Source: an uncultured bacterium (GTDB taxonomy: Bacteria; Patescibacteriota; JACMRA01). From it: a DNA stretch of 64,000 bases. The stretch covers positions 32,001 to 96,000 of the forward strand of contig CAWAQU010000009.1 in the NCBI GenBank assembly GCA_963784355.1, read 5' to 3'. The notes beneath the pieces were generated by a model. That model was given only the letters and a program-made list of their open reading frames with translations, was not told the origin of the DNA and searched no databases. Positions 714 to 44,471 of this stretch are shown one piece after another (positions within the stretch are counted from its first letter, which is position 1; each line of letters starts with the position of its first letter). The translations under genes and the position numbers were made by a program.

Positions 714-3485
714 CTAACCCTTCAAAATACCTGCAGGCACTATGTCTGGACTGATTTTGAAAATAGTTGCAGCAGCTTCTTGGTCAATTTCTTCCAATAA
801 ATTCATAAATATGCTCATACCATCTTGCTTAAACTCTACCAAAGGGTCCTTTTGAGAATAACCCCTCAAGCGTACAGAATCCTGCAAATGATCAATAGTA
901 ACTAAATGCTCTGTCCAAAGTATGTCTATTGCTCTTAAGAACATAAATCTAGCTAAAGCAGACTGTACTCTGTCTTCGTAAATCTCCCATCTGGTTTTCA
1001 ATTGATAGTTTAGTTTTTCCGCTAAAATTTTAGCAACTTTAGAATACTTAAACTTATGATCTTTCAAAAGTACAGAAATTACCCCTGTATCAAAATCGGC
1101 TAAATTCAAAATGTTTTTCAATATATTGCTAGCTTCTTTTAATTGCTCTTGATTGATATTAGATTTTCTACCTGTTGGCTTTTTAACTATAGTTAAAGTA
1201 TTATAGACAGCATTGTAGATACTCTTTTCTATTTCTTTTTGCCATTCAAAACCTTCATTTAAGAGTACTTTTTTACGTCTGGAGTAAATCACACTTCTCT
1301 GTTTGTTAATTACGTCATCGTACTCAGTAACGTGCTTACGTACATCAAAGTTTTGTCCTTCAATTTTCTTTTGAGCTTCTTCTATCAAACCTGAAAGTAA
1401 TTTATTCTGAATTGGTTCATCATCAGGGATTGGTAAGATGTTCTTGTAGTAACTCATTCTATCACCTCCAAATACTCTCAAAACATAGTCTTCAAGTGAG
1501 ATATAAAACTGACTCATACCCGGATCTCCTTGACGTCCACTACGACCTCTCAACTGATTATCAATACGTCTACTCTCGTGTCTTTCAGTACCAATTACAA
1601 ATAAACCTCCTAAATTTTTGACTTCTTCATGGAGTTTTTTCCACTCTTCTTTTTTTGTTTCATCATCAGGAATTTCTCCACCTAATTTAATATCCACACC
1701 ACGACCCGCAATATTAGTTGCCAAAGTCACACTCCCCTTTTTACCGGCTTCAGAAACAATTTTTGCTTCCTGCTCGTGATTTTTAGCATTTAAAACTTGG
1801 TGTGGGACACCTGCTTCTTTTAATTGTTTGCTCAGCTCCAAATTTTTATCAATAGATGTAGTACCAATCAAAATCGGCTGCCCGGTTTCATGTATAGCTT
1901 TTATATCTCTTACAATGGCTTGGAATTTCCCCGCTTCAGTTTTAAAAATTTTATCTACATAGTCTTTTCTGACCATTACCTTATTTGTAGGAATAGTAAC
2001 TACTAAAAGCTTATAGATTTTAAACAATTCCTCAGCCTCAGTAGCAGCCGTACCTGTCATACCTGACAATTTATTATATAGTCTAAAGTAGTTTTGGAAT
2101 GTAACTGTAGCCACTGTCTTGCTCTCGGGTTGAACTTTCAGCCCTTCTTTGGCCTCCAATGATTGGTGTAGACCTTGATTGTATCTTCTACCAAACATCA
2201 ATCTACCTGTAAATTCATCTACAATGACTATTTCTCCATCCCTAACTACATATTCTTTTTCTCTATGAAACAAGGCCCAAGCTTTCAAGGCTTGATCTAA
2301 ATGGTGGATTAAAACAACATTTTCAGACGATCCGTAAAGTGATTTTATACCCAACATTCTCTCTACTTTTTCAATACCAAATTCACTTAAAGTTACAGTT
2401 TTGCGTTTTTCATCTACCTTGTAATCAACTTCAGGATTCAACTTTTTAACCAACTCGGCAAACTGTTTATACCTAGCAGAAGAGTCTGCATCTTGAGAGG
2501 AAATAATCAACGGAGTTCTAGCTTCATCAATCAAAATAGAGTCAACCTCGTCTACAACGGCTACTGTCTGACCGGCTTTTTGGACAATTTCCTCAGGAGT
2601 GTTAGCCATGTTATCTCTTAGATAGTCAAAACCGAATTCGGAATTTACCCCATAAACAATGTCTACAGGTTGATTAGCTTCTTCGTCCCAGTAGGCTCTC
2701 TTCCTATCACAATGAACCAAATTTTCAACATCCAAAACCGCCCTACTGTCATCCAAACTACCATCTTCGTACGTATCTACCAGTCCGGCATTTCTTTTTT
2801 TATCTTCAACAGATCCCGCTTGAGCGCCCAATTTAAAATAAAAGCTTGCTTGATTCTGAATAATTCCAACAGTCAGTCCCAAAAAATCATAAATTTTACC
2901 CATCCAACTAGCATCACGCCTCGCCAAATAGTCGTTTACAGTAACTAAGTGTACTTGGTTGTTTTCAGGAAGGGCATTTAAATATACAGCTAAAGTAGCT
3001 ACCAAAGTTTTTCCCTCTCCTGTTCTCATTTCAGCTACGCGGCCATCATTTAATACCATACCACCAATCAACTGAACCGGGAAATGTTTTTGCCCTATAG
3101 TTCTCCAAGCAGCTTCCCTAACTACAGCAAAAGCTTCGGGTAGAAGTTCGAGCAATTTTTTCTCCATTTCTTTTTCCTTCAAGCCTTTCAATTTTTCTCT
3201 AAATTCAAATGTTTTAGCTTTAAGCTCACTATCTGAGAGACCTTGCATTTTTGCATCAAAATCCTCAATTTTTTTAACTACGGCTAAGTATTTATTGATT
3301 TCTTTTTTTTCACCAATTAAATTGTCCAGAAATTTTTTAAATTGACTTCTGTCTTTTACAACAGTTCTTTGCTTGGTTGTGGTACTTTTAGCTTTAGTCT
3401 GAGGATTATTATCTGCAGGCACATTAATGTTTGTAGTTTCTGTCTCTTTTACAGCTACATCATTATTTGGATTAGAAGAACTCAT
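714..3485 (-). CDS. secA: Preprotein translocase ATPase SecA
   Basis: MRTGEGKTL, VTVNDYLARRD, VDEVDSILIDEARTPLIIS and GTERHESRRIDNQLRGRSGRQGDPG motifs; no C-terminal Zn-binding motif. Confidence 0.99.
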   Translation of the reverse strand: MSSSNPNNDVAVKETETTNINVPADNNPQTKAKSTTTKQRTVVKDRSQFKKFLDNLIGEKKEINKYLAVVKKIEDFDAKMQGLSDSELKAKTFEFREKLKGLKEKEMEKKLLELLPEAFAVVREAAWRTIGQKHFPVQLIGGMVLNDGRVAEMRTGEGKTLVATLAVYLNALPENNQVHLVTVNDYLARRDASWMGKIYDFLGLTVGIIQNQASFYFKLGAQAGSVEDKKRNAGLVDTYEDGSLDDSRAVLDVENLVHCDRKRAYWDEEANQPVDIVYGVNSEFGFDYLRDNMANTPEEIVQKAGQTVAVVDEVDSILIDEARTPLIISSQDADSSARYKQFAELVKKLNPEVDYKVDEKRKTVTLSEFGIEKVERMLGIKSLYGSSENVVLIHHLDQALKAWALFHREKEYVVRDGEIVIVDEFTGRLMFGRRYNQGLHQSLEAKEGLKVQPESKTVATVTFQNYFRLYNKLSGMTGTAATEAEELFKIYKLLVVTIPTNKVMVRKDYVDKIFKTEAGKFQAIVRDIKAIHETGQPILIGTTSIDKNLELSKQLKEAGVPHQVLNAKNHEQEAKIVSEAGKKGSVTLATNIAGRGVDIKLGGEIPDDETKKEEWKKLHEEVKNLGGLFVIGTERHESRRIDNQLRGRSGRQGDPGMSQFYISLEDYVLRVFGGDRMSYYKNILPIPDDEPIQNKLLSGLIEEAQKKIEGQNFDVRKHVTEYDDVINKQRSVIYSRRKKVLLNEGFEWQKEIEKSIYNAVYNTLTIVKKPTGRKSNINQEQLKEASNILKNILNLADFDTGVISVLLKDHKFKYSKVAKILAEKLNYQLKTRWEIYEDRVQSALARFMFLRAIDILWTEHLVTIDHLQDSVRLRGYSQKDPLVEFKQDGMSIFMNLLEEIDQEAAATIFKISPDIVPAGILKG

Positions 3486-3616
3486 AATTGTTGTGATTTG
3501 TAGTTAAAAATAAGTTGTTTAATAGGGTTTGTCAAGTTACAAACTTAAGTGTAATAGCCTGGTGGCTCATGAATTACTTGTTTGACATAAAATCAGCTAA
3601 AATACAAAATACAACT

Positions 3617-4528
3617 GTGATTTTAATTAGTTTGTTAGGACAAACATGCAGTGGCAAATCCGAAATGGCAGTAGAAATAGCTAGGTGGCTGGGTAATTGC
3701 TGCATAATCAACTGTGACTCTAGGCAAATCTACCAAAAATTAAATATTGGTACTGGCAAAATCAAAGGTAGTTGGAAAGATAACAATTATTTTTACAAGA
3801 CTATCCCTCATCTTCTAATTGATTACGTCGATCCCCAAGAAAAAAATTATTCACTTGCTAATTATATTAACGATTTTAAAAACTTGCAAACTAATATAGA
3901 AAGTCAATTCAAATACGCAATTTTGACAGGAGGTACAGGTTTATACGCTAAGGCCATTACTGACAACTACCAAATTAGCTCTGTAAAGCCTGAATATGAA
4001 AAAGATTGGCAAGATTTAAGAAAAGAATTATCCAAAGATTCAATTTCAACTTTGCAACAAAAATATCTAACTTTAAACTTAAGCCCTTTAAATCATTCCG
4101 ATTTTCACAATCCCAGACGATTAATCAGCAAACTCTTGGATTTTGAGGGAAAAAGTAAAGGTTGGTACGAAACTATTCAAAATGAATTTAAATTTGATAA
4201 AAGCCTCAATTTTGCAATTCAAGTGGACCAGACTGAGTTAAAACAAAAAATTTTAATTAGGTTGAAAGATAGAGTAACTGAGGGCCTTACTGAGGAAATA
4301 GAGAGTTTAAATTATTTGGGTACTCAAAGATTACTTGATTTAGGTCTAGAATACCGCATCTCCCAACTTTACTTGTTAGGATTTCTAACCGAAGATGAAT
4401 GGATCAACAAAATGTATCTGGAAAATTGTAAATATGCCAAAAGACAGCTTACTTGGCTACAAAAACAAGATTTTACTTGGATCAGTAATACAGAAGAGAC
4501 AAAAAGAAGGATTACTTCCGCAATTTAA
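3617..4528 (+). CDS. miaA: tRNA dimethylallyltransferase
   Basis: GQTCSGKS P-loop, DSRQIY, GGTGLY, YAKRQLTW. Start moved to GTG 3617, just downstream of TTGACA at 3582 (the track starts at 3515). Confidence 0.92.
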   Translation: MILISLLGQTCSGKSEMAVEIARWLGNCCIINCDSRQIYQKLNIGTGKIKGSWKDNNYFYKTIPHLLIDYVDPQEKNYSLANYINDFKNLQTNIESQFKYAILTGGTGLYAKAITDNYQISSVKPEYEKDWQDLRKELSKDSISTLQQKYLTLNLSPLNHSDFHNPRRLISKLLDFEGKSKGWYETIQNEFKFDKSLNFAIQVDQTELKQKILIRLKDRVTEGLTEEIESLNYLGTQRLLDLGLEYRISQLYLLGFLTEDEWINKMYLENCKYAKRQLTWLQKQDFTWISNTEETKRRITSAI

Positions 4529-4530
4529 AT

Positions 4531-4974
4531 CTACACTTTGCAAAGTGGTTCAAAACCGAATTGGCTGTTTACTTGTACATTTTCTTGTTTAATTGTACTT
4601 CCAAAAAAACACATCTGCCATCTTTGAATATTATTAAACTCCTGTTTCTTTTTCTCAGGAATATAATTCGGGTTTTGGTTATCAACAGTTTCTAATAAAG
4701 AAGTATCCAATACCTCCTCACCTTTTTTCTTGTAATTTATCTCTTTAGCATACTTTTCTTGGTACAAAGCACTGTTGTAGTAATCCTTTTCGTTTTTAGA
4801 CTCATTATTTTCTTGAATCAGTTTTTGAAAGACTAAAGACTCTGCATTAGCTTGAGCTTGAATACGATATAAGTTGTAAATATTGTATATGTTAGCTAAA
4901 AAACCGCCCACTAGTAATAAGTGAACGGTAAATTTTACACTGGGTATTTGAAAAAAACGTTGTAGTGAATTCAT
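4531..4974 (-). CDS. FtsB/DivIC-like septum formation membrane protein
   Basis: One N-terminal TM helix, a coiled coil, and EKYAKEINYKKKGEEV resembling the FtsB E..AR..LG..KPGE motif. Confidence 0.5.
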   Translation of the reverse strand: MNSLQRFFQIPSVKFTVHLLLVGGFLANIYNIYNLYRIQAQANAESLVFQKLIQENNESKNEKDYYNSALYQEKYAKEINYKKKGEEVLDTSLLETVDNQNPNYIPEKKKQEFNNIQRWQMCFFGSTIKQENVQVNSQFGFEPLCKV

Positions 4975-5000
4975 TCAAAATCAAAAATTATTGGATATGA

Positions 5001-5441
5001 CTAACCAAACAAACCTGTAATATTTGTACTAGTTAGACCACTAATAAAGTTAACAATTGTATATGCAATGATTGTGATAATTAAACCGTATAAAGCATTG
5101 AAAAGTATTTTCTTTCCTTTTTTTGATCTAGCTTCATCACCATTATCAACAATGATAAGGAAACCTCCATATACTAAGAATAGTACTGCTACTGCTCCAG
5201 CTATATAAGTAAGGAATTTGGCAATGTTAAGAATAAAACTGGCTATACTGCCTCGACCTCCAATAAAACTTGAACCCTCTGTTGCACCCGTAACAGGACA
5301 GCTTCCACCACATAGCTCGGTTACACCTGGAATTTTTACTTCTGTTGCACTCACTGAAGGAGCTACAACTAAACTAAAAGCAAATATTGCAATTAATGAA
5401 AATGAAAATAGTTTTGTAAGTATGTTTGCAAATGCTGACAT
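5001..5441 (-). CDS. VirB2/TrbC-like (CPR-type) pilin, copy 1
   Basis: Signal peptide ending VSA, Cys-pair loop, two hydrophobic helices separated by the charged loop DNGDEARSKKGKK, then LYGLIITIIAYTIVNFI. Confidence 0.8.
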   Translation of the reverse strand: MSAFANILTKLFSFSLIAIFAFSLVVAPSVSATEVKIPGVTELCGGSCPVTGATEGSSFIGGRGSIASFILNIAKFLTYIAGAVAVLFLVYGGFLIIVDNGDEARSKKGKKILFNALYGLIITIIAYTIVNFISGLTSTNITGLFG

Positions 5442-6123
5442 AAGAATAAGATATTGTTGTTTTTTGTAACTTGTTTTTGTTAGTTAAATAAAAGTATAAC
5501 TTAGATTATTTATTTGTGCAAGTGGAAGATTTTACTTAAGCTGTTCTTAGTTGCATTTTACTCAGATGTCCCTCCAAACAAACCTGTAATATTTGTACTA
5601 GTTAGACCACTAATAAAGTTAACAATTGTATATGCAATGATTGTGATAATTAAACCGTATAAAGCATTGAAAAGTATTTTCTTTCCTTTTTTTGATCTAG
5701 CTTCATCACCATTATCAACAATGATAAGGAAACCTCCATATACTAAGAATAGTACTGCTACTGCTCCAGCTATATAAGTAAGGAATTTGGCAATGTTAAG
5801 GATGAAGGTAGCTATATTGTTTTGACTTCCGTTAGTCCCTAGAAATTGCGATCCGGTTGCTGAACCCGTAACAGGACAATTACTACCACATAATTCTGAA
5901 CGTGAAGGTAGTGACACTGTGCCATTTGCGGCAGTGGAACTAGCAGCACTCACTGAAGGAGCTACAACTAAACTAAAAGCAAATATTGCAATTAATGAAA
6001 ATGAAAATAGTTTTGTAAGTATGTTTGCAAATGCTGACATAAGAATAAGATATTGTTGTTTTTTGTAACTTGTTTTTGTTAGTTAAATAAAAGTATAACT
6101 TAGATTATTTATTTGTGCAAGTG
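5005..6123. repeat. Tandem duplication of pilin gene plus upstream region
   Basis: 5005-5231 matches 5574-5800 (227 bp) and 5347-5524 matches 5946-6123 (178 bp), identical by eye; the intervening segments differ. Confidence 0.93.
5558..6040 (-). CDS. VirB2/TrbC-like (CPR-type) pilin, copy 2
   Basis: Same architecture as 5001-5441, with identical signal peptide and TM region and a different mature N-terminus. Confidence 0.8.
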   Translation of the reverse strand: MSAFANILTKLFSFSLIAIFAFSLVVAPSVSAASSTAANGTVSLPSRSELCGSNCPVTGSATGSQFLGTNGSQNNIATFILNIAKFLTYIAGAVAVLFLVYGGFLIIVDNGDEARSKKGKKILFNALYGLIITIIAYTIVNFISGLTSTNITGLFGGTSE

Positions 6124-6166
6124 TGGTATATTTTTTATGTTTGTGTCAAGTGAAGTTTTCCCCATT

Positions 6167-7375
6167 TTAGCTGCTTTTATAGTAATTTAATATCCCTGAA
6201 AGACCTATCATTACGGCATTATCACCGGTCAAGCTAAGATTAGGAATAAAAATATTTTTGAGTCTGTTTTTTACTTTTAGCTCTTCAATTTTTTGTCTAA
6301 GTAACAGATCAGCAGATACGCCACCGGAAAGACCTATTGTAATAGGTTTGTATTTTTTTATCCCCAGTTCAAATTTGTTGATAAGTTGCTTGGTTACAAC
6401 AGTTCTGGCAGATACACACACGTTATAAATAAAGTCTAATTTTTGGTTTTTTTCAGAAGGATCCAGATTTCTGTAATTCATTAGTTTTTTTATTTCGTCA
6501 GGACCCAACTGTTTCTCAAAAGCAAAATTTGGAATTTTTTGATCCTGGATATGATATCTCACAGCAGTTTTTAATCCTGAAAAAGAATAGTTTAGATCTG
6601 CACTTTGCTTCATCCCTACCGGAAAATTGCAATAATTACCTTCAAATAAACCTGATATTTTTGCTACATGCATACCACCTGGATATGGCAAGCCCAGCAT
6701 ACGACCTACTTTATCCAAACACTCCCCGGCTGCATCATCTAAGGTTTTACCTACTATTTGCCAACTATTCCAGGAATTTAGAAGGATTATTTGTGAATTT
6801 CCACCGGAGACTAAAAGATGTAGATGAGGAAATACTTCTGATTTTATTTCAATTTCGGGATTGTAAAAGCTACTTGCCACATGCCCTTTCAAATGATTTA
6901 TCGAGCATACCTCTATTGCTTTATTTTGTCTTTCTCCTATATAAAAACTCATACTTTTAGCAAATTCCATACCTACCCTAAGGGCAGAAATTAGTCCGGG
7001 CTCAGTTGTGACAAATATTTTATCGACTTGAGACAGTAAATCTAGGTCTTCAGCATCAAGCGTAATGGAGTCAAATGATAAATTTTCATCCAAGTTATGT
7101 TTTAAGTTTGAAACTGTGTTGTTTTTAATACTTTCCTTGACCTCCTGAAGTAGCATTTTTAATAAAAAGTGGATTTGCTCAGCATGTTTTCTAGCTCCAA
7201 TTTCAGGGATTACACCCCCATATTCAGCGTGAATCTTGATTTGAGAAGAAACAATACTACCTAAAACTTTAAATGAATTTAAATATGCATAAAAATCTAA
7301 ATTAGCATTCAAATCCCCTTCTACAACAGCTAAGGAAGTCTCGTCACAACTGGTCTCAATACTCAGGTAAAGCAT
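6167..7375 (-). CDS. tsaD: tRNA N6-threonylcarbamoyltransferase TsaD
   Basis: IETSCDET, YGGVIPE, NHLKGH, LLVSGG, TLDDAAGE, SFSGLKTA, DNAVMIG. Confidence 0.97.
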   Translation of the reverse strand: MLYLSIETSCDETSLAVVEGDLNANLDFYAYLNSFKVLGSIVSSQIKIHAEYGGVIPEIGARKHAEQIHFLLKMLLQEVKESIKNNTVSNLKHNLDENLSFDSITLDAEDLDLLSQVDKIFVTTEPGLISALRVGMEFAKSMSFYIGERQNKAIEVCSINHLKGHVASSFYNPEIEIKSEVFPHLHLLVSGGNSQIILLNSWNSWQIVGKTLDDAAGECLDKVGRMLGLPYPGGMHVAKISGLFEGNYCNFPVGMKQSADLNYSFSGLKTAVRYHIQDQKIPNFAFEKQLGPDEIKKLMNYRNLDPSEKNQKLDFIYNVCVSARTVVTKQLINKFELGIKKYKPITIGLSGGVSADLLLRQKIEELKVKNRLKNIFIPNLSLTGDNAVMIGLSGILNYYKSS

Positions 7376-7380
7376 ATAAT

Positions 7381-8964
7381 TTAGTTTATTTTAGTTTCCT
7401 CAGGACTTTTTGTTATTCTTTTTTTAGCTGATTCAAGCTGCCAAAACGGTACCCACTGCCTTTTGCTTAGCTCCTTGTCAGTTATAGGTATATAGTAAGT
7501 AAGTGGACTGAAAAATAGAAATGTAGCAAATACTATGAAGCAAGTACCGCTTAAAACTCCGTACAAATAAATTCTGACTTTAGGTATTTCAAGGTATGTT
7601 TTCATTGTATATTGGAAAATTAAAGCAGCCAAAATGTAACTAAGCGTAAGAGGAATTAAATAGTGATAGAGATACATTGCCCTAGGGATTAAAAACATGA
7701 TAATCATGTAAAATAAATACAATGCCAAAAATAATTTAATTTTTTCAAATAGCTTTTGGTCAGTAATTTTTAACCCAAACACGTGTTTGCTTAAAATCAA
7801 GACAATACTCAACAACATTCCTAAAAGCCCGATCAGCCAAGACACTGGATTACCTTGCAAATAAATATATCTTGCACTTTCACTATTGTATTCATAAGCA
7901 TATATTACACTTCTAGCACCAATTGGCCAAGTAATCGGGAAACTTGGGTCGGAAAGAGTCTGATAATTAGAGGGATTCAAGCTTTCTACATTTATATGGT
8001 GCTTAAAAATATAGAGTATGTTGATTGCGTAGAATTTTAAGACTCCACGTGCAGTTAAATTTTCTTGACCTTCCAAAGAATTTTTATAGTTTGTGTTATT
8101 TATATATTTTGCGTAAGTATCTCCATGTATCTCTTTTCCAAGCAATCCGTGAAGGCCATAAATTAAAGCAGTTGATAGAATAATTGCCGAAATAAAAACA
8201 ATTGCTTTCGATACAAAACCCTTAAAGTATTTGGGTTGATTTATTTTTTTTATAAAATTTTCTTGATTCAGATGACTTAAGTTTTTATCTTTTAAGTAAA
8301 TTAATACAAAACAAAGTACTAGAAATAAACCATTTACCTTAACTAAAATCGGTAGAGAAACAAGCAAGCCTAAAATAAAATATTCCTTAAATGATACAAA
8401 GTTTAATTGTGGCTTTCCAGAAGATAGGCTATCCCACAATTTCATAAAGTAAATTAGAGCTAAAAATATAAAAAACAACTGGGTACTTTGCAATAGTGCG
8501 GCTCTTGTATCTACAATTATAGCATTGTCAAATAAATAGACTAGTGAAAAAAAGAAGGCCAGGGTATTATTTTGTAGTAAAATACATAAAAGCCAGAAAA
8601 AGAGTGTAGCAGCCAAAATACCAAAGATTATAGGAAAAAATCTGGCTCCGGTGTAATTGTAAGTACCGGGAATATTCTCTACACTATATTCAGTTGTTAA
8701 AAATTCTTCTGGAATGTTGGTATTTCCGTTGAAAATCTTTTCCCCTAAAGCTATGAATAATTTACCAAGTGGTGGATGATCTTGTAAAAAAGCAACTCCA
8801 TGGACATATTTTTGAGCAGCCGGAATAAAATAAGCCTCATCCCAGATGCTTTTATTGGGTTGGTTATAATTTGGAAAGTACACACATACAGCCATTAAAA
8901 GTACCGCAAGCGTGTACAAAAACAAACTGTTTTCCACTAAGTATTTTTTAATAGAAGCTAGCAT
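7381..8964 (-). CDS. Protein O-mannosyltransferase-like GT-C (PMT/GT39) membrane glycosyltransferase
   Basis: Polytopic protein with WDEAYF (DE motif), DHPPLGKL, GNP, and YLYHYLIPL, typical of the PMT and PMT_4TMC domains. Confidence 0.8.
   Translation of the reverse strand: MLASIKKYLVENSLFLYTLAVLLMAVCVYFPNYNQPNKSIWDEAYFIPAAQKYVHGVAFLQDHPPLGKLFIALGEKIFNGNTNIPEEFLTTEYSVENIPGTYNYTGARFFPIIFGILAATLFFWLLCILLQNNTLAFFFSLVYLFDNAIIVDTRAALLQSTQLFFIFLALIYFMKLWDSLSSGKPQLNFVSFKEYFILGLLVSLPILVKVNGLFLVLCFVLIYLKDKNLSHLNQENFIKKINQPKYFKGFVSKAIVFISAIILSTALIYGLHGLLGKEIHGDTYAKYINNTNYKNSLEGQENLTARGVLKFYAINILYIFKHHINVESLNPSNYQTLSDPSFPITWPIGARSVIYAYEYNSESARYIYLQGNPVSWLIGLLGMLLSIVLILSKHVFGLKITDQKLFEKIKLFLALYLFYMIIMFLIPRAMYLYHYLIPLTLSYILAALIFQYTMKTYLEIPKVRIYLYGVLSGTCFIVFATFLFFSPLTYYIPITDKELSKRQWVPFWQLESAKKRITKSPEETKIN
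7776..7789. repeat. Palindrome CAAACACGTGTTTG (copy 1, inside the PMT gene)
   Basis: Perfect 14-bp palindrome; the same 12-bp core occurs at 29374, 40732 and 45640. Confidence 0.75.
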
Positions 8965-9984: not shown

Positions 9985-10153
9985 ATATAAACTCATTTTT
10001 GAAATATTTATTTAAAACTGGCAAGTACAGAATCACTAAGACCAATTTTTTTGTTTGCAATATAGTTGTATGAAAATAAAGTCTTGACAAATATTAGATT
10101 CTACAATATTAATCAGTATTAACGGTTTACAATATTTATTAGTTAATGTTTGC

Positions 10154-10465
10154 ATGTCTACGACTAAAATGAGAGTCAAAATATACTCCTTTGATCATAA
10201 AATTTTAGAGGAAGCAGTAAAAAAGCTGGTCCAAGTGGTCATAAAGTCCGGTGGTAAGGTCAAAGGTCCAGTACCTTTAAAGACCAAAAAGAAAATTTTT
10301 ACTTTGCTCAGATCAACCTTTATTTACAAGAAATCTAGGGATAAGATAGAGTGCCGCATCCACAAAAGATTGATTGATATTGATGACGTAAACAGTGACA
10401 TTATAAATAATTTATCAACTTTATCTCTCCCCGCAGGTGTAGATTTAAGTATTGAAACAGTCTAA
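10154..10465 (+). CDS. rpsJ: 30S ribosomal protein uS10
   Basis: GPVPL, HKRLIDI, LPAGVD. Confidence 0.96.
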   Translation: MSTTKMRVKIYSFDHKILEEAVKKLVQVVIKSGGKVKGPVPLKTKKKIFTLLRSTFIYKKSRDKIECRIHKRLIDIDDVNSDIINNLSTLSLPAGVDLSIETV

Positions 10466-10481
10466 ACAATTTAATTCAGAT

Positions 10482-11096
10482 ATGTCCCTTGGTTTTGCAA
10501 AAAAGATTGGAATGACAAGACTCTTTATAGATGGTAGAAATACCCCTGTAACAGTACTTGAATTTAAAAATAATTATTTACTTCAGAAAAAAACTACCCA
10601 AAAAGAAGGCTACAATGCTATTCAAGTGGGTTCTGTTAAAAAAGTAAGCTCTAGTAGAGCCGCAAAAGGCCATGTTAAAAAATATACTGGTTTAGATCAT
10701 AACTTTAGATTCATTGAGGAATTCGATATTGATAATTTGCCTGAAGATAAAAAGATTTTTGATATCAATGATTTTGCTGCAGATGACTTGCTTGATATAT
10801 CAGGTACTGTAATAGGTAGAGGTTTTGCAGGTGTAGTCAAAAGACATGGCTTTGCAGGACAACCAGCTAGTCACGGTCACGATCATGAAAGAGCTCCTGG
10901 TTCAATCGGTTCTAGATGGCCACAAAGAGTTTTACCCGGAAAGAAAATGGCCGGTAGAATGGGTGGTAATATAACTAAAATCAGAAAAGTGAAGATAGTT
11001 GCTGTGGATTCTGAAAACAATTTACTTTTTGTCCATGGTTCAGTCCAGGGAAGTAATAGCTCATATCTCAAAATTCAAAAAGTTTCTCAAGATTAA
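10482..11096 (+). CDS. rplC: 50S ribosomal protein uL3
   Basis: KKIGMT, GRGFAGVVKRHGF, PGKKMAGRMG; start at ATG 10482. Confidence 0.97.
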   Translation: MSLGFAKKIGMTRLFIDGRNTPVTVLEFKNNYLLQKKTTQKEGYNAIQVGSVKKVSSSRAAKGHVKKYTGLDHNFRFIEEFDIDNLPEDKKIFDINDFAADDLLDISGTVIGRGFAGVVKRHGFAGQPASHGHDHERAPGSIGSRWPQRVLPGKKMAGRMGGNITKIRKVKIVAVDSENNLLFVHGSVQGSNSSYLKIQKVSQD

Positions 11097-11120
11097 TAAT
11101 AAAATATAATATAATTAAAG

Positions 11121-11756
11121 ATGTCTCTCAAAATTCAAATTATAGACGATCAGATGGATAAGACCATTGAGGCTTTTGCTTCACTTAATGACTACGAGGT
11201 AAAAGCAATATTGCTTGCCCAGATGGTTAGAAGTGAGATGATGAATCTGAGATCCGGTAATGCTCATACTAAAACTAGAGCAGAAGTAAGAGGTGGAGGT
11301 AAGAAACCTTGGAAACAAAAAGGTACAGGTAGAGCAAGACACGGATCCATCAGATCTCCTTTATGGGTTGGTGGTGGTGTCACTTTCGGTCCTAGAAATA
11401 TCAGAAACTGGCATTTAAAGATCAATAAAAGCGCTAGAGTATCAGCTTTAAAATCAGCACTAAAAGATAGATTAGTAGACAATGCTGTATATCAATTTGG
11501 TGAAGGGTTTGAATTTTTAAAGACTAAGTCTGCAGTAGAAGTTTTAACTAATTTGGAAAACAAGACTCAGTCCAAGTCAAAAAATATGCTTATATTCTAC
11601 ACTGCAGATGATAAAAGCAAATTATCAGGCTTTTTGAGTACTGAGGCTAAACTTATGAATGCTGAGAATATTAAAATTTTTAAAATATTAAATGCGACCA
11701 ACCTTATCCTCACACCTAAAGCTAAAGAAATATTAGAAACCCGAATAAGTAAATAG
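11121..11756 (+). CDS. rplD: 50S ribosomal protein uL4
   Basis: TKTRAEVRGGGKKPWKQKGTGRARHGS. Confidence 0.97.
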   Translation: MSLKIQIIDDQMDKTIEAFASLNDYEVKAILLAQMVRSEMMNLRSGNAHTKTRAEVRGGGKKPWKQKGTGRARHGSIRSPLWVGGGVTFGPRNIRNWHLKINKSARVSALKSALKDRLVDNAVYQFGEGFEFLKTKSAVEVLTNLENKTQSKSKNMLIFYTADDKSKLSGFLSTEAKLMNAENIKIFKILNATNLILTPKAKEILETRISK

Positions 11757-11760
11757 TAAA

Positions 11761-12075
11761 ATGACTACCTGCGTTTTAATCCAAACCGAAAAAGCATACG
11801 TTACACAAGTAAAAAATACTTATACTTTAGCTTTTCTAGAAAAACAGTACAATACCAATAAAATTGAACTTGAAAAACTTTTAAAGCAAGTTGGTTTAAC
11901 TACAGTAAAAATAACTACCACTAATACTCAGCAAAAAACTAAGAAAAGAGGTAAGACAGGTAGAACAATACTGCAATTTAGACCACAGAAATATTATGTT
12001 CGCCTAAAAGCCGGAGAGACTATTACTGAAGATACTATGAAATCAATCAACGAGAAATTAAATTCAAAAGAATAA
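11761..12075 (+). CDS. rplW: 50S ribosomal protein uL23 (divergent)
   Basis: TEKA, NKIEL, KYYVRLKAGETI; located after rplD. Confidence 0.85.
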   Translation: MTTCVLIQTEKAYVTQVKNTYTLAFLEKQYNTNKIELEKLLKQVGLTTVKITTTNTQQKTKKRGKTGRTILQFRPQKYYVRLKAGETITEDTMKSINEKLNSKE

Positions 12076-12089
12076 TAACCTAATCTAAA

Positions 12090-12362
12090 ATGTCCAGATC
12101 ACTTAAAAAAGCACCCTATTGTCTACCCAAACTAGTACTTAAAGTAGCTAAGTACAGAAGTAGTGGATCTTCTACTGCGATCAAAACCTGGAGTAGACCA
12201 AGTACAATTTTACCTGACTTTGTAGGAGTTAAGTTTGCCGTACACAATGGTAGAAAGTTTGTAGAAGTATTGATAACCGAAGATATGGTTGGACACAAAT
12301 TAGGTGAGTTTGCACCTACTACTACTTTTAAATCTCATGGTGGTAAGAAAGCAGGTAAATAA
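12090..12362 (+). CDS. rpsS: 30S ribosomal protein uS19
   Basis: [29 protein letters not shown]. Confidence 0.98.
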
Positions 12363-12374
12363 TAATTGCAGAAT

Positions 12375-13208
12375 ATGTCTAGAATAAAAGTATATAAACC
12401 TACTACCAACGCAAGAAGAAAAACTTCAGTAGTTGCATATAGTGAGGTGTTGACCACAAGTGATCCATATAAAAAATTACTGATCCGCAAACCTAGAAAA
12501 GCAGGTAGAAACAGCTCTGGAAAGATTACCGTTAGACACCAAGGTGGAGGCTACAAAAAAATGGTTAGAATTGTTGACTTTAAAAGAGATTTTCAAGCTG
12601 GTTTTAAAGTTTTAACTGTCGAATACGATCCAGGAAGAAGTAGTTTTATTTGTTTAGTTTCTGATTTAATAACAGGAGAAAAAAAATATATCTTACACAG
12701 TAAGGGCATGTCAGTTGGAATGAGACTTAATGTTAGCAAAGAAATTACTGATGGTAACCAGGTTACTTTAAACACTCTACCAATCGGTACCTTTGTATCT
12801 CAGATCGAACTAAATCCGAACCAAGGAGCTAAGCTAGTAAGATCAGCCGGAAATTACGCCATAGTAACAGCTAAAGAAGATAAGTGGGTGACACTTAAAT
12901 TACCTTCAGGCGAAATAAGAAAATTTTTGGGAGAGTGTAAAGCTGTAGTAAATAGAGTAGGAAACGAAGCTAATGAATTAGTACGATTGGGTAAAGCAGG
13001 TAGGGTTAGAAGAATGGGTGTAAGACCTACAGTTCGTGGTAAAGTTATGAATCCTGTTGATCACCCTCATGGTGGTGGAGAAGCTAGAAATTCAATTGGT
13101 CTTAAATATCCTAAGACTCCTTGGGGTAAACATGCTTTAGGTGTTAGAACTAGGGATAAGAAATTGTCCAGTAGCAAGTTTATAGTAAAGAGAAGAAATA
13201 AAAAATAA
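12375..13208 (+). CDS. rplB: 50S ribosomal protein uL2
   Basis: GRNSSGKITVRHQGGG, EYDPGRS, VRGKVMNPVDHPHGGGE. Confidence 0.98.
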   Translation: MSRIKVYKPTTNARRKTSVVAYSEVLTTSDPYKKLLIRKPRKAGRNSSGKITVRHQGGGYKKMVRIVDFKRDFQAGFKVLTVEYDPGRSSFICLVSDLITGEKKYILHSKGMSVGMRLNVSKEITDGNQVTLNTLPIGTFVSQIELNPNQGAKLVRSAGNYAIVTAKEDKWVTLKLPSGEIRKFLGECKAVVNRVGNEANELVRLGKAGRVRRMGVRPTVRGKVMNPVDHPHGGGEARNSIGLKYPKTPWGKHALGVRTRDKKLSSSKFIVKRRNKK

Positions 13209-13245
13209 TAATTAATTATATTAATCCATAGATAACATTACGAAC

Positions 13246-13578
13246 ATGTCTACAAAATTTACTGCTTCTACAATACTAAATTATAGTCCAAGAAAGACCA
13301 GATTAGTCATAAATGCTATTCGAGGTAATACTTTAGGTGCTGCCCTAGATGATTTAAAAACAATGAACAAGGGCAAAACTAAAAAGATCTATAATTTATT
13401 AAAGTCTGCGGCTTCTAACTTAAAATTGACTGAAGCGGAATATCCTCAGTACAAAGTAAGCTCTATCATAGCTGAAGAGGCTCAGAAACTCTACAGAATG
13501 GTACCAAGAGCTAGGGGATCAGCTTTTAGAATCAGACGTAGATATAGTAGAATTAAAGTGTTATTAGAACATCTATAA
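13246..13578 (+). CDS. rplV: 50S ribosomal protein uL22
   Basis: SPRKTRLV, LLKSAASN, PRARGSAFRIRRRYS. Confidence 0.95.
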   Translation: MSTKFTASTILNYSPRKTRLVINAIRGNTLGAALDDLKTMNKGKTKKIYNLLKSAASNLKLTEAEYPQYKVSSIIAEEAQKLYRMVPRARGSAFRIRRRYSRIKVLLEHL

Positions 13579-13614
13579 ATTGACAAAATTACTTTTCTTA
13601 ATTTAATTATAATT

Positions 13615-14295
13615 ATGGGCCAGAAAATTTCAATCGCGTTATTTCGTGCTAAAAAAAGATTGAGCAATACAGATGCAAGTGGAGATCCTAGTCAGATGCA
13701 AAAATCTCTATGGTTTGCCACAGGCAGAAGTTATTCAAAACTTTTATTTCAGGATAAAGAAATCAGAGAATTCCTCAAAAAAGAGCTGCAGTCCGCTGGT
13801 TTGGTAGAAATTATAATCAAGCGCTATTTTAGAAAAGTTGAAATTATTTTATACGTTACTAAACCTGGTATAGTAATTGGCCGCTCTGGAAGTAGCATTA
13901 ACAAATTAAAAGAAGACTTGGTTGCTAAGTTTAAACTACCTTCTGATCTAAGATTAGATATTCAAGAGTTTAAAGATCCAAACAGATCAGCCCAGGTTAT
14001 TGCTAATGAAATCTCAGAAGCTCTAAAACGAAGTGTACCTTATCGTAGATTAGCTAAAGGATATCTTGAAAAAATCAGATACTCTGGTATAATGGGTGCA
14101 AAGATTAGCTTAAGCGGCAGACTTAATGGTGCTGAAATTGCCAGAAGAGAAGAGTTTCCATTCGGAAGCATCCCTAGACACACAATTGACGCAAATTTAG
14201 ACTACGCTCAAATTCACTGCAAAACTAAAGCCGGCATTATAGGTATAAAAGTGATACTGTACAAAGGTGATAAATTTAAAAACTATACTTATTAA
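13615..14295 (+). CDS. rpsC: 30S ribosomal protein uS3
   Basis: MGQK, KPGIVIGRSG, SGRLNGAEIAR. Confidence 0.97.
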   Translation: MGQKISIALFRAKKRLSNTDASGDPSQMQKSLWFATGRSYSKLLFQDKEIREFLKKELQSAGLVEIIIKRYFRKVEIILYVTKPGIVIGRSGSSINKLKEDLVAKFKLPSDLRLDIQEFKDPNRSAQVIANEISEALKRSVPYRRLAKGYLEKIRYSGIMGAKISLSGRLNGAEIARREEFPFGSIPRHTIDANLDYAQIHCKTKAGIIGIKVILYKGDKFKNYTY

Positions 14296-14306
14296 TAATT
14301 AGAGAA

Positions 14307-14522
14307 ATGACTGGTATAATAAGCTCAAACAAGATGATGAAAGCACTAGTAGTTACAGTGTTTACAACTAAATTGCATCCAAAATACAATAAAAGGTATA
14401 AAAGTAAAAAAAGATATACTGTAGCTTGTAGCGATTCTTCAAAATTTAAAATTGGGGATACTGTAGAAATTCAATCTACAAGACCTATTTCAAAAACCAT
14501 AAGCTTTAAAGTAGTAGAGTAA
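14307..14522 (+). CDS. rpsQ: 30S ribosomal protein uS17
   Basis: HPKYNKR, GDTVEI, TRPISKT. Confidence 0.93.
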   Translation: MTGIISSNKMMKALVVTVFTTKLHPKYNKRYKSKKRYTVACSDSSKFKIGDTVEIQSTRPISKTISFKVVE

Positions 14523-14523
14523 T

Positions 14524-14949
14524 ATGCTTAGTCCAAAGAAAATAGTTCATAAAAAAGTTTTTAATCGATATGGCCAAAAGAGAAGAGGTCAGTTAACTCG
14601 TGGATCTACTTTGGTATTTGGAGAATACGCTTTAAAAGCTACTTCAAGCTCTTGGTTAACCAGCAGACAAATTGAATCTGCAAGAAGAGTAATCAGTAGA
14701 AGATGTAAAGGTGCTAAGATATATATTCGTGTTTTTCCATCAAGACCTGTAACTTCAAAAGGTTTAAACATTCCTATGGGTACTGGTGTAGGAAGCATTG
14801 ACTATTTCATGTTTCCAGTTAAACCAGGCAGAATTATTTTCGAGGTTAGAGGTGTTGCTGAAGAAAAAGTTAAAGAAGCTTTCAGAATCGCAGGGCACAA
14901 ACTTCCATTTGGAACTAAAATGGTTCAAAAAGATAAACATCAATTTTAA
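14524..14949 (+). CDS. rplP: 50S ribosomal protein uL16
   Basis: QIESARR, IRVFP, MGTGVG, VKPGRIIFE. Confidence 0.96.
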   Translation: MLSPKKIVHKKVFNRYGQKRRGQLTRGSTLVFGEYALKATSSSWLTSRQIESARRVISRRCKGAKIYIRVFPSRPVTSKGLNIPMGTGVGSIDYFMFPVKPGRIIFEVRGVAEEKVKEAFRIAGHKLPFGTKMVQKDKHQF

Positions 14950-14967
14950 TTTATTTATTAGACTAAT

Positions 14968-15339
14968 ATGCTTCAAGAACGTACAATTGTTGATGTAGCC
15001 GATAACTCAGGGGCTTCTAAAATCATGCTTTTCGCTGTAAACGGTAAAAATAACCGAGCTTCGGCAGGTATTGGTGAAGTTGTTGTAGGATCAGTTAAAA
15101 AAGCTTCCGTAGGTAGTAAAATTAAAAAAGGATCGGTAGTTCATGTTTTAATTGTTAGAACTAGAAATAAAGTTCAACGTAGAGACGGAAGCAGTATTAA
15201 ATTTTCTGATAATGCAGTTGTGGTTGTAAATAAAAACACTAAAGAACCTGTAGCTACTAGAGTTTTTGGTCCTGTAGCTAGAGAATTAAGAGAAATGGGC
15301 CACTCTAAAGTAATTTCAATGGCAGAAGAAGTATTATAA
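14968..15339 (+). CDS. rplN: 50S ribosomal protein uL14
   Basis: VADNSGA, FSDNAVV, TRVFGPVARELR. Confidence 0.98.
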   Translation: MLQERTIVDVADNSGASKIMLFAVNGKNNRASAGIGEVVVGSVKKASVGSKIKKGSVVHVLIVRTRNKVQRRDGSSIKFSDNAVVVVNKNTKEPVATRVFGPVARELREMGHSKVISMAEEVL

Positions 15340-15355
15340 ATTTTCGATTAAAATC

Positions 15356-15754
15356 ATGTCTATAGCAAAAATTCAAACAGGAGATCAAGTGAAAGTTATT
15401 GCAGGTAACTATAAAGGTAATGTGGGTCAAGTACTCAAGGTTGTTAAAAGGAAATCTGCCAACGGAAAAGTTATAAAGATCAGAGCTGCTGTAAGTAATG
15501 TACCAAAGATTGCTAAATATCGCAGATCAACAGTAGTTCAGGGTCAATCTTATCCTGGTATGAAAACTGAAACAGACAGATTTATTGATCTTTCAAACCT
15601 TAGTTTAGTTACATCTGATCAAAAATACTCAAAGGTAAAAATTGCTTTAGATGAGAAAGGTAAAAAAATTAGAGTTTTAAAGAAAACAAACGAAACTGTA
15701 GTTAAGCAAATCCTACCTAAAATCAAACCCGCAACTGACGATTTAAATCAATAA
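15356..15754 (+). CDS. rplX: 50S ribosomal protein uL24
   Basis: KOW motif GDQVKVIAGNYKG; located after rplN. Confidence 0.9.
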   Translation: MSIAKIQTGDQVKVIAGNYKGNVGQVLKVVKRKSANGKVIKIRAAVSNVPKIAKYRRSTVVQGQSYPGMKTETDRFIDLSNLSLVTSDQKYSKVKIALDEKGKKIRVLKKTNETVVKQILPKIKPATDDLNQ

Positions 15755-15790
15755 TTTGACTAAAATTAAAAAATATTAAGAATTAAAAGA

Positions 15791-16342
15791 ATGGCTTCAC
15801 TCGAATTATCTACAGAAAATTACTTTTTAGAGTCTAAACAGGCTTTAGTAAATGCTTTTCCTGATACCAATCCGTTTGCTTTATCTGAACTAAAACAGAT
15901 ATCTATCAACGTAGGTGTGGGAAATGTTAAAAAGTTTGATGCAAAGCAAAAGCAAGAAATTGCTGACTATTTAACTAAACTAACTGGTCAAACTCCAAAA
16001 CAAATTGGCGCCAAAAAAGCAGTTTCAAATTTTAAGACTAGAAAAGGTGATTTAGTAGGTTTAGCTGTTACTTTAAGAGGTAAAAAGGCTAAAGATTTTT
16101 TGTTACACTTAGTTTATATTGCATTACCTAGAACTAGAGATTTTAAGGGAGTAAAAACTGAAGCTTTCGATAAAAACTATGCTTTTTACAGTCTTGGAAT
16201 TGAAAACTCTTCAATATTTCCAATTGTAGGCTTCGATGCATCAGTAAACTTTGGAATGCAAATTAACATTGTATTCAAACAACCAAAAAAAGAAAATGTA
16301 ACACTTTTAGAAAATTTAAAATTCCCGTTTAAAAAAGATTAA
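15791..16342 (+). CDS. rplE: 50S ribosomal protein uL5
   Basis: INVGVG, LTGQTP, VTLRG, ALPRTRDFKG. Confidence 0.96.
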   Translation: MASLELSTENYFLESKQALVNAFPDTNPFALSELKQISINVGVGNVKKFDAKQKQEIADYLTKLTGQTPKQIGAKKAVSNFKTRKGDLVGLAVTLRGKKAKDFLLHLVYIALPRTRDFKGVKTEAFDKNYAFYSLGIENSSIFPIVGFDASVNFGMQINIVFKQPKKENVTLLENLKFPFKKD

Positions 16343-16348
16343 TTTATT

Positions 16349-16534
16349 ATGGCACGTAAAGCGTTGATTGTTAAAAGCAATAGAGTACCAAAATTTTCAA
16401 GTAGGAGAATTCACAGATGTAAAGTTTGTGGTCGTGCTCGTGGCTACTATAGATTTTTTGATATGTGTAGAATCTGTATCAGAGAAGCTGCCATTAGAGG
16501 TGAGTTAAACGGTTTTTTCAAAAGTAGTAAATAA
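16349..16534 (+). CDS. rpsN: 30S ribosomal protein uS14, zinc-binding type
   Basis: 61 aa; RCKVCGR...MCRICIRE. Confidence 0.96.
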   Translation: MARKALIVKSNRVPKFSSRRIHRCKVCGRARGYYRFFDMCRICIREAAIRGELNGFFKSSK

Positions 16535-16543
16535 AATAATAAT

Positions 16544-16918
16544 ATGTCATTACAAGATTTACTCAGTGATTATGTAGCAAGATTAAACAATGCTGTGCTA
16601 GCTAAAAAACCCGTTATTCAAGTGTTAAAGAATAGAGTTGTGGTTAATGTGTCAAAAAAACTAACTAGTCTAGGTTATATTGAAAGTTTTGAAGATACCG
16701 GTAATAATATTTTATTGCTTACTTTAAACTTAAATAGAATGAATAGAATATTTAGAATCTCCAAGCCAGGGCACAGAGTTTATATAGCTCATAATAAAAT
16801 CCCTAAAATCATAGGTGGAAAAGGTTTTAACATCATTTCTTCTTCAAAAGGAATAATCACTCACGTCGAGTCAAACAAAGAAAAATTAGGTGGAGAATTA
16901 CTATTCCAAATATACTAA
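16544..16918 (+). CDS. rpsH: 30S ribosomal protein uS8
   Basis: RISKPGHRVY, IISSSKGI, GGELL. Confidence 0.95.
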   Translation: MSLQDLLSDYVARLNNAVLAKKPVIQVLKNRVVVNVSKKLTSLGYIESFEDTGNNILLLTLNLNRMNRIFRISKPGHRVYIAHNKIPKIIGGKGFNIISSSKGIITHVESNKEKLGGELLFQIY

Positions 16919-16970
16919 ATTTTAAGTTTCTTGACAATTTACAAAGAATAGCAATATTATTAATGATATT

Positions 16971-17510
16971 ATGTCTCGTATAGGGAAAAAAACAATCACC
17001 CTGCCCAGTGGAGTTAGCTTTAATTTTGATGAGCCAAATAAAGTAGTTACTGTAAAAGGTGCTTTAGGTGAACTCAAAGCAAAGGTTACATCTTTTGTTG
17101 GTTTTAAAATTGAAAATAACGAATTATCAGTACAAATCTTAAATCAAGAGAATGATTTCCAGAAAGCAATTTGGGGCACAACCAGAAGTATTGTAAATAA
17201 CATGGTTGAGGGGGTAAACAAAGGTTATACTAAAGAAATTGAGCTAAACGGAGTAGGATATCGTATGGAGCTAGGTTCAGATCTAACTTTACACATAGGT
17301 TATTCTCACCCTGTAAAAGTAGTTATCCCTTCAGGAATCAAGCTAACTTTAAATAAAAACTTATTGACTGGGACCAGTATTGATAAGGAACTTTTAGGTA
17401 ATTTTTTCAGCCAAATTTTTCATTTAAAACCTTGTGACGTTTATAAACACAAAGGATTCAAATTCCCAGGTCAATTCTACAGAAAGAAAGTTGGTAAAAA
17501 AGGTAAATAA
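16971..17510 (+). CDS. rplF: 50S ribosomal protein uL6
   Basis: MSRIGKK, GTTRS, GVGYR, GYSHP. Confidence 0.97.
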   Translation: MSRIGKKTITLPSGVSFNFDEPNKVVTVKGALGELKAKVTSFVGFKIENNELSVQILNQENDFQKAIWGTTRSIVNNMVEGVNKGYTKEIELNGVGYRMELGSDLTLHIGYSHPVKVVIPSGIKLTLNKNLLTGTSIDKELLGNFFSQIFHLKPCDVYKHKGFKFPGQFYRKKVGKKGK

Positions 17511-43325: not shown

Positions 43326-44471
43326 ATGGCTAAAAAAGCAAATCAAAATAACGTTCAAATACCTACAGGTATAGAAGATAAGAAAAAGATGGCGGACTTG
43401 ATTATTTCCCAGATTAAAACCACATTTGGACAAGGTTCTATCATGAAGATGAATGAAATAGCAAATCCAGATGTAGAAGTTATTTCCACAGGATCTCTTT
43501 CTGTTGACTTAGCTTCTGGAATAGGGGGTTTACCTAAGGGAAGGGTTGTAGAAATCTATGGACCCGAAGCAAGTGGTAAGACAAGTTTGGCTTTATCTGC
43601 TATTGCTCAATCTCAAAAAGAAGGTGGAATTGCTGCCTTTATTGATGCTGAGCATGCTTTAGATCCTGCAAGAGCAGCAGCCTTTGGGGTTAATTTAAAT
43701 GATCTATACCTATCTCAACCTAATAACGGAGAAGAGGCTTTGGAGATTGTGGATAACTTGGTCAGATCGAATGCTTTTGATATTATAGTTGTAGACTCTG
43801 TTGCTGCATTGGTACCAAAAAGTGAAATTGAGGGCAGCATGGGTGATTCATCAATGGGCGTGCAAGCAAGGCTTATGAGTCAAGCGCTTAGAAAATTGAC
43901 CGGTATAATCTCCAAATCAAACACAGTAGTTATATTTATCAATCAGATACGTTTGAAAATTGGAGTCATGTTTGGAAATCCAGAAACTACCACTGGAGGA
44001 CAAGCACTAAAATTTTATGCATCTCAACGATTTGATGTGAGAAAGGTGGGAAATTTAACATCTAACAACGAAACTGTAGGTGTAAGAGTGAGAGTAAAAG
44101 TTGTGAAAAACAAGATGGCAGCTCCATTTAAGACTGTAGAGTTTGATATGATGAACAGTGAACCAGGTGTAATCTCTTTAGCAGGAGAGGTCGTAGATAT
44201 CGGAACTACTTACGAGGTAGTAGTCAAAACAGGAAATACCTACACTTTAAAATCTGAAAAGCAAGGCGAAGTAAAATTGGGAGTTGGGCGCGAGAATGCT
44301 AAAAAGTATTTATATGAGCGTAAAGAATTGCTTGAAGAGGCTAAAATTTTGATTTTAAAAGAATTTAAGAGGAGAATAAAGGAAGGGGTGATCAACCTTA
44401 CTGAGGTAAATGAGCCAAATGATGAAGATTTTACTAAAGTAAACAGTGATTCAGAAGATTCAGAAGAATAG
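43326..44471 (+). CDS. recA: Recombinase RecA
   Basis: [51 protein letters not shown]. Confidence 0.99.

Follow-up and report, generated by a model that had tools for sequence, protein, structure and literature searches.

How two neighbouring genes can be identical to the last base over two long blocks and yet strongly diverged in the segment between them is the question raised by a pair of VirB2-like pilin genes in the genome of an uncultured, ultra-small patescibacterium. The pair lies in the 64,000-nucleotide stretch analysed here (hereafter the window), positions 32,001–96,000 of the 156.7-kb contig CAWAQU010000009.1 (G000:C9:32001-96000, G000 being the source genome; GenBank assembly GCA_963784355.1), and unless a contig is named all coordinates below refer to that window, the features of the pair being on the minus strand throughout. 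Pilin gene A (5001–5441) encodes 146 residues ending ...GLFG before a TAG stop, and pilin gene B (5558–6040) encodes 160 residues ending ...GLFGGTSE before a TAA stop. Both belong to the VirB2-like family PF18895 (T4SS_pilin, T4SS denoting type IV secretion system), with respective scores of 43.4 bits (E = 3.5e-11) and 47.1 bits (E = 2.6e-12) that exceed the gathering cut-off of 26.6 bits, and the overall identity of the two genes is 83–88%. Analysis of the pair indicated that the mosaic feature is real and that its reading in terms of recombination is sound, while the analogy with programmed variation drawn in an earlier note on this DNA is unsupported.

Pairwise DNA alignment, together with a count of identical runs, confirmed as exact the coordinates given in that note for two identical blocks and for the variable segments between them. 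Constant block 1 (5946–6123 in copy B and 5347–5524 in copy A; 178 of 178 bases identical) comprises 83 bp of non-coding DNA upstream of the ATG, which includes a promoter-like site and leader, plus 95 bp of coding sequence (codons 1–32): it begins three bases ahead of the promoter-like site and ends on the final signal-peptide codon (..SVSA). Constant block 2 (5574–5800 in copy B and 5005–5231 in copy A; 227 of 227 bases identical) extends from the hydrophobic, amphipathic lead-in (..FILNIAKF..) to the first transmembrane (TM) stretch, TM1, through a basic loop (..RSKKGKK..) and TM2 to the last common codon, after which gene B adds four codons. The third-longest identical run between the two units is 15 bp, and alignable similarity ends outside the blocks, where 18 of 37 and 6 of 29 columns are identical.

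The two cassettes enclosed by these blocks differ in both length and sequence: cassette B (5801–5945) consists of 145 bp, equivalent to about 46–48 codons, is rich in serine and threonine (15 of 46 residues) and carries a conserved C-x3-C-P motif, whereas cassette A (5232–5346) consists of 115 bp, equivalent to about 36–38 codons. Identical bases occupy 66 of the 145 columns of their alignment, 30 of which are gap columns, and 19 of 36 aligned residues are identical in the corresponding proteins. The motif ELCG..CPVTG, previously described as all that the variable segments have kept, is indeed retained, but GS.F, GS and IA also align. The two units are connected by a 49-bp joiner (5525–5573), unique in the genome, which contains the last four codons and stop of gene B plus a spacer, and in which no terminator-like site or stable RNA fold was found; it is unlike both the DNA upstream of copy B and the DNA that lies downstream of copy A. 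Both copies are complete, each having an ATG, a signal peptide and an identical upstream sigma-70-like site (TGCACA-16-TATACT, at 6092–6119 inside block 1 of copy B and 5493–5520 in copy A), recognised by consensus match only.

Random placement of the 79 differing columns in the 550-column unit (20,000 trials) gave a longest identical run with a mean of 31 and a maximum of 89. Synonymous differences were recorded at 2 of approximately 78 sites in the flanks, both of them at block edges, as against 21 of approximately 30 sites in the middle (Fisher p = 2.4e-13). Within the constant blocks the synonymous divergence (dS) was 0, and the 83 non-coding bases were likewise identical, while Nei–Gojobori (NG86) estimates for 38 middle codons gave a saturated pS of 0.71, a pN of 0.33, a dN of 0.44 and a dS of about 2.2. 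Blocks that are synonymously unchanged on either side of a saturated middle resemble the outcome neither of purifying selection nor of fast evolution after a recent duplication, and the gene therefore has two histories. The earlier contention that a recent duplication alone would be insufficient was upheld both by this contrast and by controls that vary synonymously along the whole gene; the sharp constant–variable–constant pattern thus requires recombination.

The relevant controls were of two kinds. When orthologs from the same genus were compared for use of the same codon at identical residues, the pair G022/G018 agreed at 19 of 25 positions in the signal peptide, 12 of 26 in the variable segment and 46 of 67 in the TM region, the corresponding values for G004/G019 being 9 of 20, 13 of 19 and 22 of 59. 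Tandem pairs in G007, G023 and G049 exhibited dS values of 1.0–1.8 in both halves of the gene. In the G023 pair (L029:38-948, on G023:C53), the N-terminal half had a dS of 1.17 and a dN of 0.80, as against 1.15 and 0.06 in the TM half; to judge from its sequence, this is a clean case in which purifying selection holds the core while the N-terminus is free or diversifying, and in which gene conversion plays no part. Since dS was equal and dN unequal in the two halves, the habit of the family is a TM core held constant at the protein level plus a free N-terminus, without nucleotide identity. A survey of 257 within-array pilin pairs at 24 loci, conducted with open reading frames (ORFs) called anew and a hidden Markov model built for the pilin family, recorded a longest shared nucleotide run of 41, apart from the 227 of the present pair.

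On balance, it seems probable that A and B are real tandem, separately promoted paralogs of a chromosomal tsaD-linked VirB2-like pilin gene, the flanks of which have been homogenised by gene conversion while the middle has escaped. The initial event would have been a lineage-specific duplication of the tsaD-linked gene, considered to be old in view of the synonymous saturation of the middle segment. Thereafter, RecA-dependent gene conversion (concerted evolution) would repeatedly have homogenised two tracts, one covering the promoter and signal peptide and the other the TM hairpin, and a recA gene is present in the window at ~43395–44162 (E = 1.5e-124). The middle may have escaped either as too diverged, or too different in length (30 bases), for heteroduplex formation, or by selection against converted variants, or by both routes. 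The joiner matches neither flank, so that a recent simple tandem duplication, which would copy a flank, is disfavoured, as is a strain 'bubble'. The two pilins that the cell would then probably make would have their export signal, membrane insertion and packing core in common, and would differ in their outward N-termini and by four residues at the C-terminus: given shared flanks and a divergent middle, one packing core would probably present two surfaces.

Comparison with related genomes bears on the origin of the pair. The tsaD gene adjoins the best-matching pilin (locus ±1.5 kb) in 6 of 19 other order-level genomes, a DivIC-like gene also being present in 4 of those 6 loci, albeit inverted in genus g4, and a single pilin gene occupies the syntenic tsaD/DivIC-like site both in the same-genus genome G001 and in G004. 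At a locus in another genus (L041, G007:C40:20280-21801), three tandem pilin genes are located right after tsaD, the third being cut by the contig end. Either the housekeeping-linked pilin locus underwent repeated expansion or it expanded long ago. In a tree constructed from 37 columns of the variable segment, A and B were sisters (ultrafast bootstrap 93; SH-like approximate likelihood-ratio test 92), their branches (0.48 and 0.37 changes per site) being longer than those separating species of the same genus; the cassettes therefore diverged within the lineage, but long ago. Two cysteines and one proline were invariant in all 17 aligned orthologs, and the likely disulfide loop is therefore a fixed scaffold within the variable segment. 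The earlier proposal that a disulfide-bonded surface loop diversifies is accordingly imprecise, these three residues being fixed and the sequence around them variable.

Relatives of the pair itself are distant. At E <= 1e-10, the protein homologs comprised 11 of 209 candidates, two of which were the window's own pilins, and the best of the others was 51% identical. No closer relative was detected by tblastn among metagenome contigs (595 pattern-matched stretches) or genome contigs (538), and in the order, which comprises 27 genomes, the best identity was 52%.

Several observations weigh against the gene conversion explanation. Conversion as a process is deduced from two sequences of one genome, no relative being closer than 52% identity, and hence its direction, tract ends and recurrence cannot be shown; of the earlier suggestion of gene conversion or cassette exchange, it is the recombination that is supported, by the dS contrast and the presence of recA. 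The dN/dS ratio of the middle, about 0.2 with a saturated dS and from two sequences, provides no positive evidence for diversifying selection. Promoter-like sites were no commoner than in shuffled sequences (7 found versus 9.0 +/- 3.4), and a PDB sequence-profile search returned no solved pilin but only spurious TM matches (rhodopsin, E >= 0.0015). The exact identity of the blocks could be slightly inflated by repeat collapse or consensus polishing, and the existence of long, nearly identical stretches on different contigs (9.8 kb at 96.7%, 5.8 kb at 99.4% and 5.2 kb at 99.5%) makes a mixture of strains possible.

An unlikely, if by no means negligible, alternative is that a cassette was imported: the whole unit would have been made identical once, by recent duplication or full-length conversion, after which one middle was replaced by the divergent allele of a related strain, the blocks serving as homology arms. 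Such a course requires no more than a single homogenisation followed by a single exchange, and is consistent with identity that covers everything alignable save the middle, with the presence of RecA, and with cassettes A and B being mutually nearest, as alleles of one population would be. Natural transformation has been documented together with homologous integration in cultivated Saccharibacteria, and competence genes are reported in the same source to be enriched in the phylum (PMC11665869). However, neither a donor allele nor a related strain was found in the homolog, metagenome-contig and genome-contig searches, the non-homologous joiner disfavours the recent simple duplication, and alleles with identical flanks and a saturated middle, which import presupposes, would themselves require recombination. 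From one genome, cassette import and conversion within the genome are inseparable.

It is rather improbable that the pair is an artefact of assembly, in which cassettes from different strains, or in some other copy number or order, were threaded through the shared 178- and 227-bp repeats and owe the identity of their flanks to collapse or polishing. The near-identical stretches between contigs (96.7–99.5%) and a completeness of 81% are compatible with such an error, and both repeats exceed typical k-mers, so that the order of the cassettes depends on read pairs or long reads. Nevertheless, the unique joiner from block 2 to block 1 can have come only from a molecule carrying two or more copies in tandem, and a two-strain bubble contains no such sequence; the locus lies inside its 156.7-kb contig and is duplicated on no other. 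Even were the assembly chimeric, two cassettes between identical flanks would exist in the population.

A bolder extension of the gene conversion explanation, speculative and with little probability attached to it, is that N-terminal cassettes are exchanged population-wide, the blocks acting as homology handles for conversion within genomes and transformation between strains. If true, such exchange would let an epibiotic bacterium of the candidate phyla radiation (CPR) swap or combine the outward faces of its T4SS-related filament, and thereby change its specificity for host strains or phages, while leaving export and packing untouched, and the pair would be a first glimpse of cassette-type surface variation in Patescibacteria.

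A programmed system of antigenic variation like pilE/pilS of Neisseria, or the operation of a dedicated diversifier such as a diversity-generating retroelement (DGR) or shufflon, is very improbable. In Neisseria, a type IV pilus pilin is expressed from one locus and altered by RecA-dependent, non-reciprocal transfer from many promoterless silent cassettes in a process that depends on a guanine quadruplex (G4). The layout of the present pair does recall that minicassette architecture, a variable and surface-exposed part of the pilin being bordered in both by conserved stretches. Here, however, the pilin is of another superfamily, no type IV pilus pilin family being present among the Pfam matches of A and B at E <= 1, and each copy is a full-length gene preceded by the same upstream DNA. 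The search for more copies that the earlier note had proposed, made with megablast, blastn-short and tblastn, revealed no additional block or cassette of either type in the assembly, which is 81% complete, the weak tblastn matches of cassette B (E >= 0.027) falling in serine- and threonine-rich repeats of giant ORFs, and no G4 motif was present on either strand at 4000–7500. As regards a DGR, mismatches were distributed among all base pairs and were not adenine-specific (A at 14 of 49 in copy A and 15 of 49 in copy B), and the copies differ in length by 30 bp, although a reverse transcriptase was not searched for; as regards a shufflon or other invertible segment, inverted repeats were limited to two weak ones of 18 nt. 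With no extra copies, complete genes, no G4, no adenine bias and no meaningful inverted repeat, all three models fail their defining tests. That an ordinary duplicate pair had its flanks conserved by selection alone, without recombination, is scarcely credible, for while the G023 pair demonstrates strong protein conservation of the TM half and not of the N-terminal half, its dS is the same in both, and identity here extends to synonymous sites and 83 non-coding bases that lie beyond the reach of protein-level selection.

The predicted topology of the pilins gives the cassettes their possible significance. Hydropathy analysis (Kyte–Doolittle) of gene A located hydrophobic stretches at residues 5–33, 73–101 and 111–136 and a short basic loop DNGDEARSKKGKK; the first stretch corresponds to the signal peptide, with the SVSA cleavage site placed by eye, and the other two are TM stretches on either side of the loop. 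On that layout, the variable segment is predicted to make up all of the mature pilin's extracellular N-terminus. In the F pilus the lumen is lined by the inter-helix loop, and the two ends of each pilin are turned to the exterior, the site of phage attachment (PMC5018250). By analogy, A and B may share export, membrane pool and packing through their identical hairpin, and the cassettes together with the C-terminal tails may form two exterior surfaces; co-expression of the two genes would likewise be expected, and a role in host or phage recognition is conceivable.

The pair is located outside any T4SS operon. Immediately upstream of the pilin genes, and kept in related genomes, is tsaD (PF00814; 6167–7375, minus strand), beyond which lies a glycosyltransferase of the protein O-mannosyltransferase (PMT) family (PF02366 and PF16192; 7381–8964, minus strand). 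Downstream is a small DivIC/FtsB-like membrane protein (4531–4974, minus strand; a weak match of 20.4 bits, below the cut-off), which is also conserved, followed by miaA (3515–4528, plus strand) and secA (714–3485). The O-mannosyltransferase is thus two genes from pilins of which the variable N-termini are rich in serine and threonine, and O-glycosylation of the exposed segment is conceivable; the same adjacency was not seen at the same-genus locus L059. Rfam, tRNA and Tandem Repeats Finder scans of the window revealed nothing bearing on the pair.

Elsewhere in the source assembly, the only VirB4-like gene found (739 residues; G000:C12:122396-124615, L066:8397-10616; PF03135, PF19044, PF12846 and PF01935) is located among housekeeping genes encoding an amidase, an S41 peptidase and a sigma factor, and adjoins a 262-residue ORF without a Pfam match. 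No recognisable T4SS partners were present next to it on C12, and a search of the assembly, which is 81% complete, gave no TrbL/VirB6 (PF04610). The description of A and B as conjugative-type pilins is doubtful, given the conserved housekeeping neighbourhood and the statement in a recent survey that most Patescibacteria T4SS have no relaxase (PMC12102498); a sub-threshold, weak NCBIfam match of the pilins was to the Mbov_0395 pilin-like conjugal transfer family. The source genome has two further pilin loci. At one position outside the window (G000:C7:21961-23550, plus strand; L002:1342-2931), a 529-residue ORF preceded by a 168-residue pilin-like ORF contains five consecutive PF18895 hairpin repeats and a tail rich in threonine and proline; three of the repeats also match PF04956 (TrbC/VirB2), and the protein aligns with the PF18895 pilin family of A and B by hhalign (probability 97). 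To judge from these repeats, the ORF looks like a fused 'poly-pilin'.

The source assembly consists of 1.14 Mb in 13 contigs with a GC content of 33–35%, and the relatives of the source genome are small Patescibacteria-type genomes. An alternative genetic code with TGA as a sense codon, considered after one pilin homolog's record was seen to be labelled Candidatus Gracilibacteria, was rejected: such a reading hardly alters the number of ORFs of at least 300 residues on C9 (58 versus 61), both pilin genes are free of TGA, and table 11 fits. The near-identical stretches already referred to are located at C7:125718-135518 versus C10:3712-13430, C8:1-5797 versus C10:1-5790 and C2:20242-25471 versus C4:14224-19453, partly at contig ends, and represent either paralogous genes for giant surface proteins or variants from strains assembled together. 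Frames open for more than 1800–2100 codons, with internal repeats of 430–590 bp that are 100% identical, were observed at G000:C5:~11000-17500, C10:~10000-15500 and C7:~132500-138500 and probably encode giant surface proteins. A 1.32-kb element present in three copies (G000:C7:6424-7744, C8:10037-11358 and C9:131967-133288; 99.9–100% identical) is probably an insertion sequence.

Patescibacteria depend on contact with host cells, and their many VirB2-like paralogs lack an explanation. The present pair shows at nucleotide resolution what may differ between such paralogs, namely the whole extracellular N-terminus except for an invariant P...C-x(3-5)-C motif, the rest being held constant. It also shows intragenomic recombination acting on these genes, and suggests for the evolution of the arrays the idea of one core with exchangeable faces. 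Only one such case, from one assembly, supports this idea, however, and phenomena of this general kind are already known from Bartonella trwL and the tandem arrays of Patescibacteria.

Several known systems invite comparison. Like TraA, VirB2 and TrbC, for which the F pilus structure serves as the example (PMC5018250), the two proteins are small and have a signal peptide and a hydrophobic hairpin, the two helices of which enclose a basic loop. Unlike those pilins, both A and B fall short of PF04956 (TrbC), matches having been considered to E 1. A long cysteine-containing N-terminal segment is not known from TraA or VirB2.

Within the phylum, the closest parallel is provided by the 441 VirB2-like arrays of 2–11 genes described in Microb Genom 2025, for which within-array amino acid identity had a mean of 25% and a maximum of 54%; the authors propose that the variety of paralogs aids adaptation to different host strains (PMC12102498). 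The T4SS is essential in the one species genetically tested (PMC11665869, PMC12102498). The present pair resembles those arrays in its phylum, its tandem arrangement and its membership of PF18895, a search profile in that survey, and the arrays, too, are often not beside virB4. With an identity of 83–88%, as against the array maximum of 54%, the pair is therefore outside the reported range, and its 100% identical DNA blocks constitute a recombination signature that the consulted part of the survey does not describe (PMC12102498). A search of main texts in a literature library yielded no published account of gene conversion between pilins of Patescibacteria, and of the papers that mention concerted evolution together with the candidate phyla radiation, none bore on the subject save through the reference list of PMC12102498.

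A nearer likeness in mechanism is the Trw T4SS of Bartonella, in which trwL (a VirB2 homologue) and trwJ are tandemly amplified (PMC2883598, citing Nystedt et al.), and in which the VirB2-family paralogs are variant surface-exposed subunits that are thought to be co-expressed, recombine with one another and have a proposed role in host specificity; concerted evolution of the Bartonella VirB2 paralogs has already been published. Tandem VirB2-family paralogs, variant exposed parts and homogenisation among copies are common to the two systems. The trwL copies, however, form part of a T4SS operon on a pathogenicity island of a diderm animal pathogen, with function shown experimentally (PMC2883598), whereas here a two-gene pair occupies a housekeeping neighbourhood in an uncultivated CPR bacterium, with virB4 on another contig. 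In relation to these systems, the pair is an unusually clean instance of a known phenomenon, in a new phylum.

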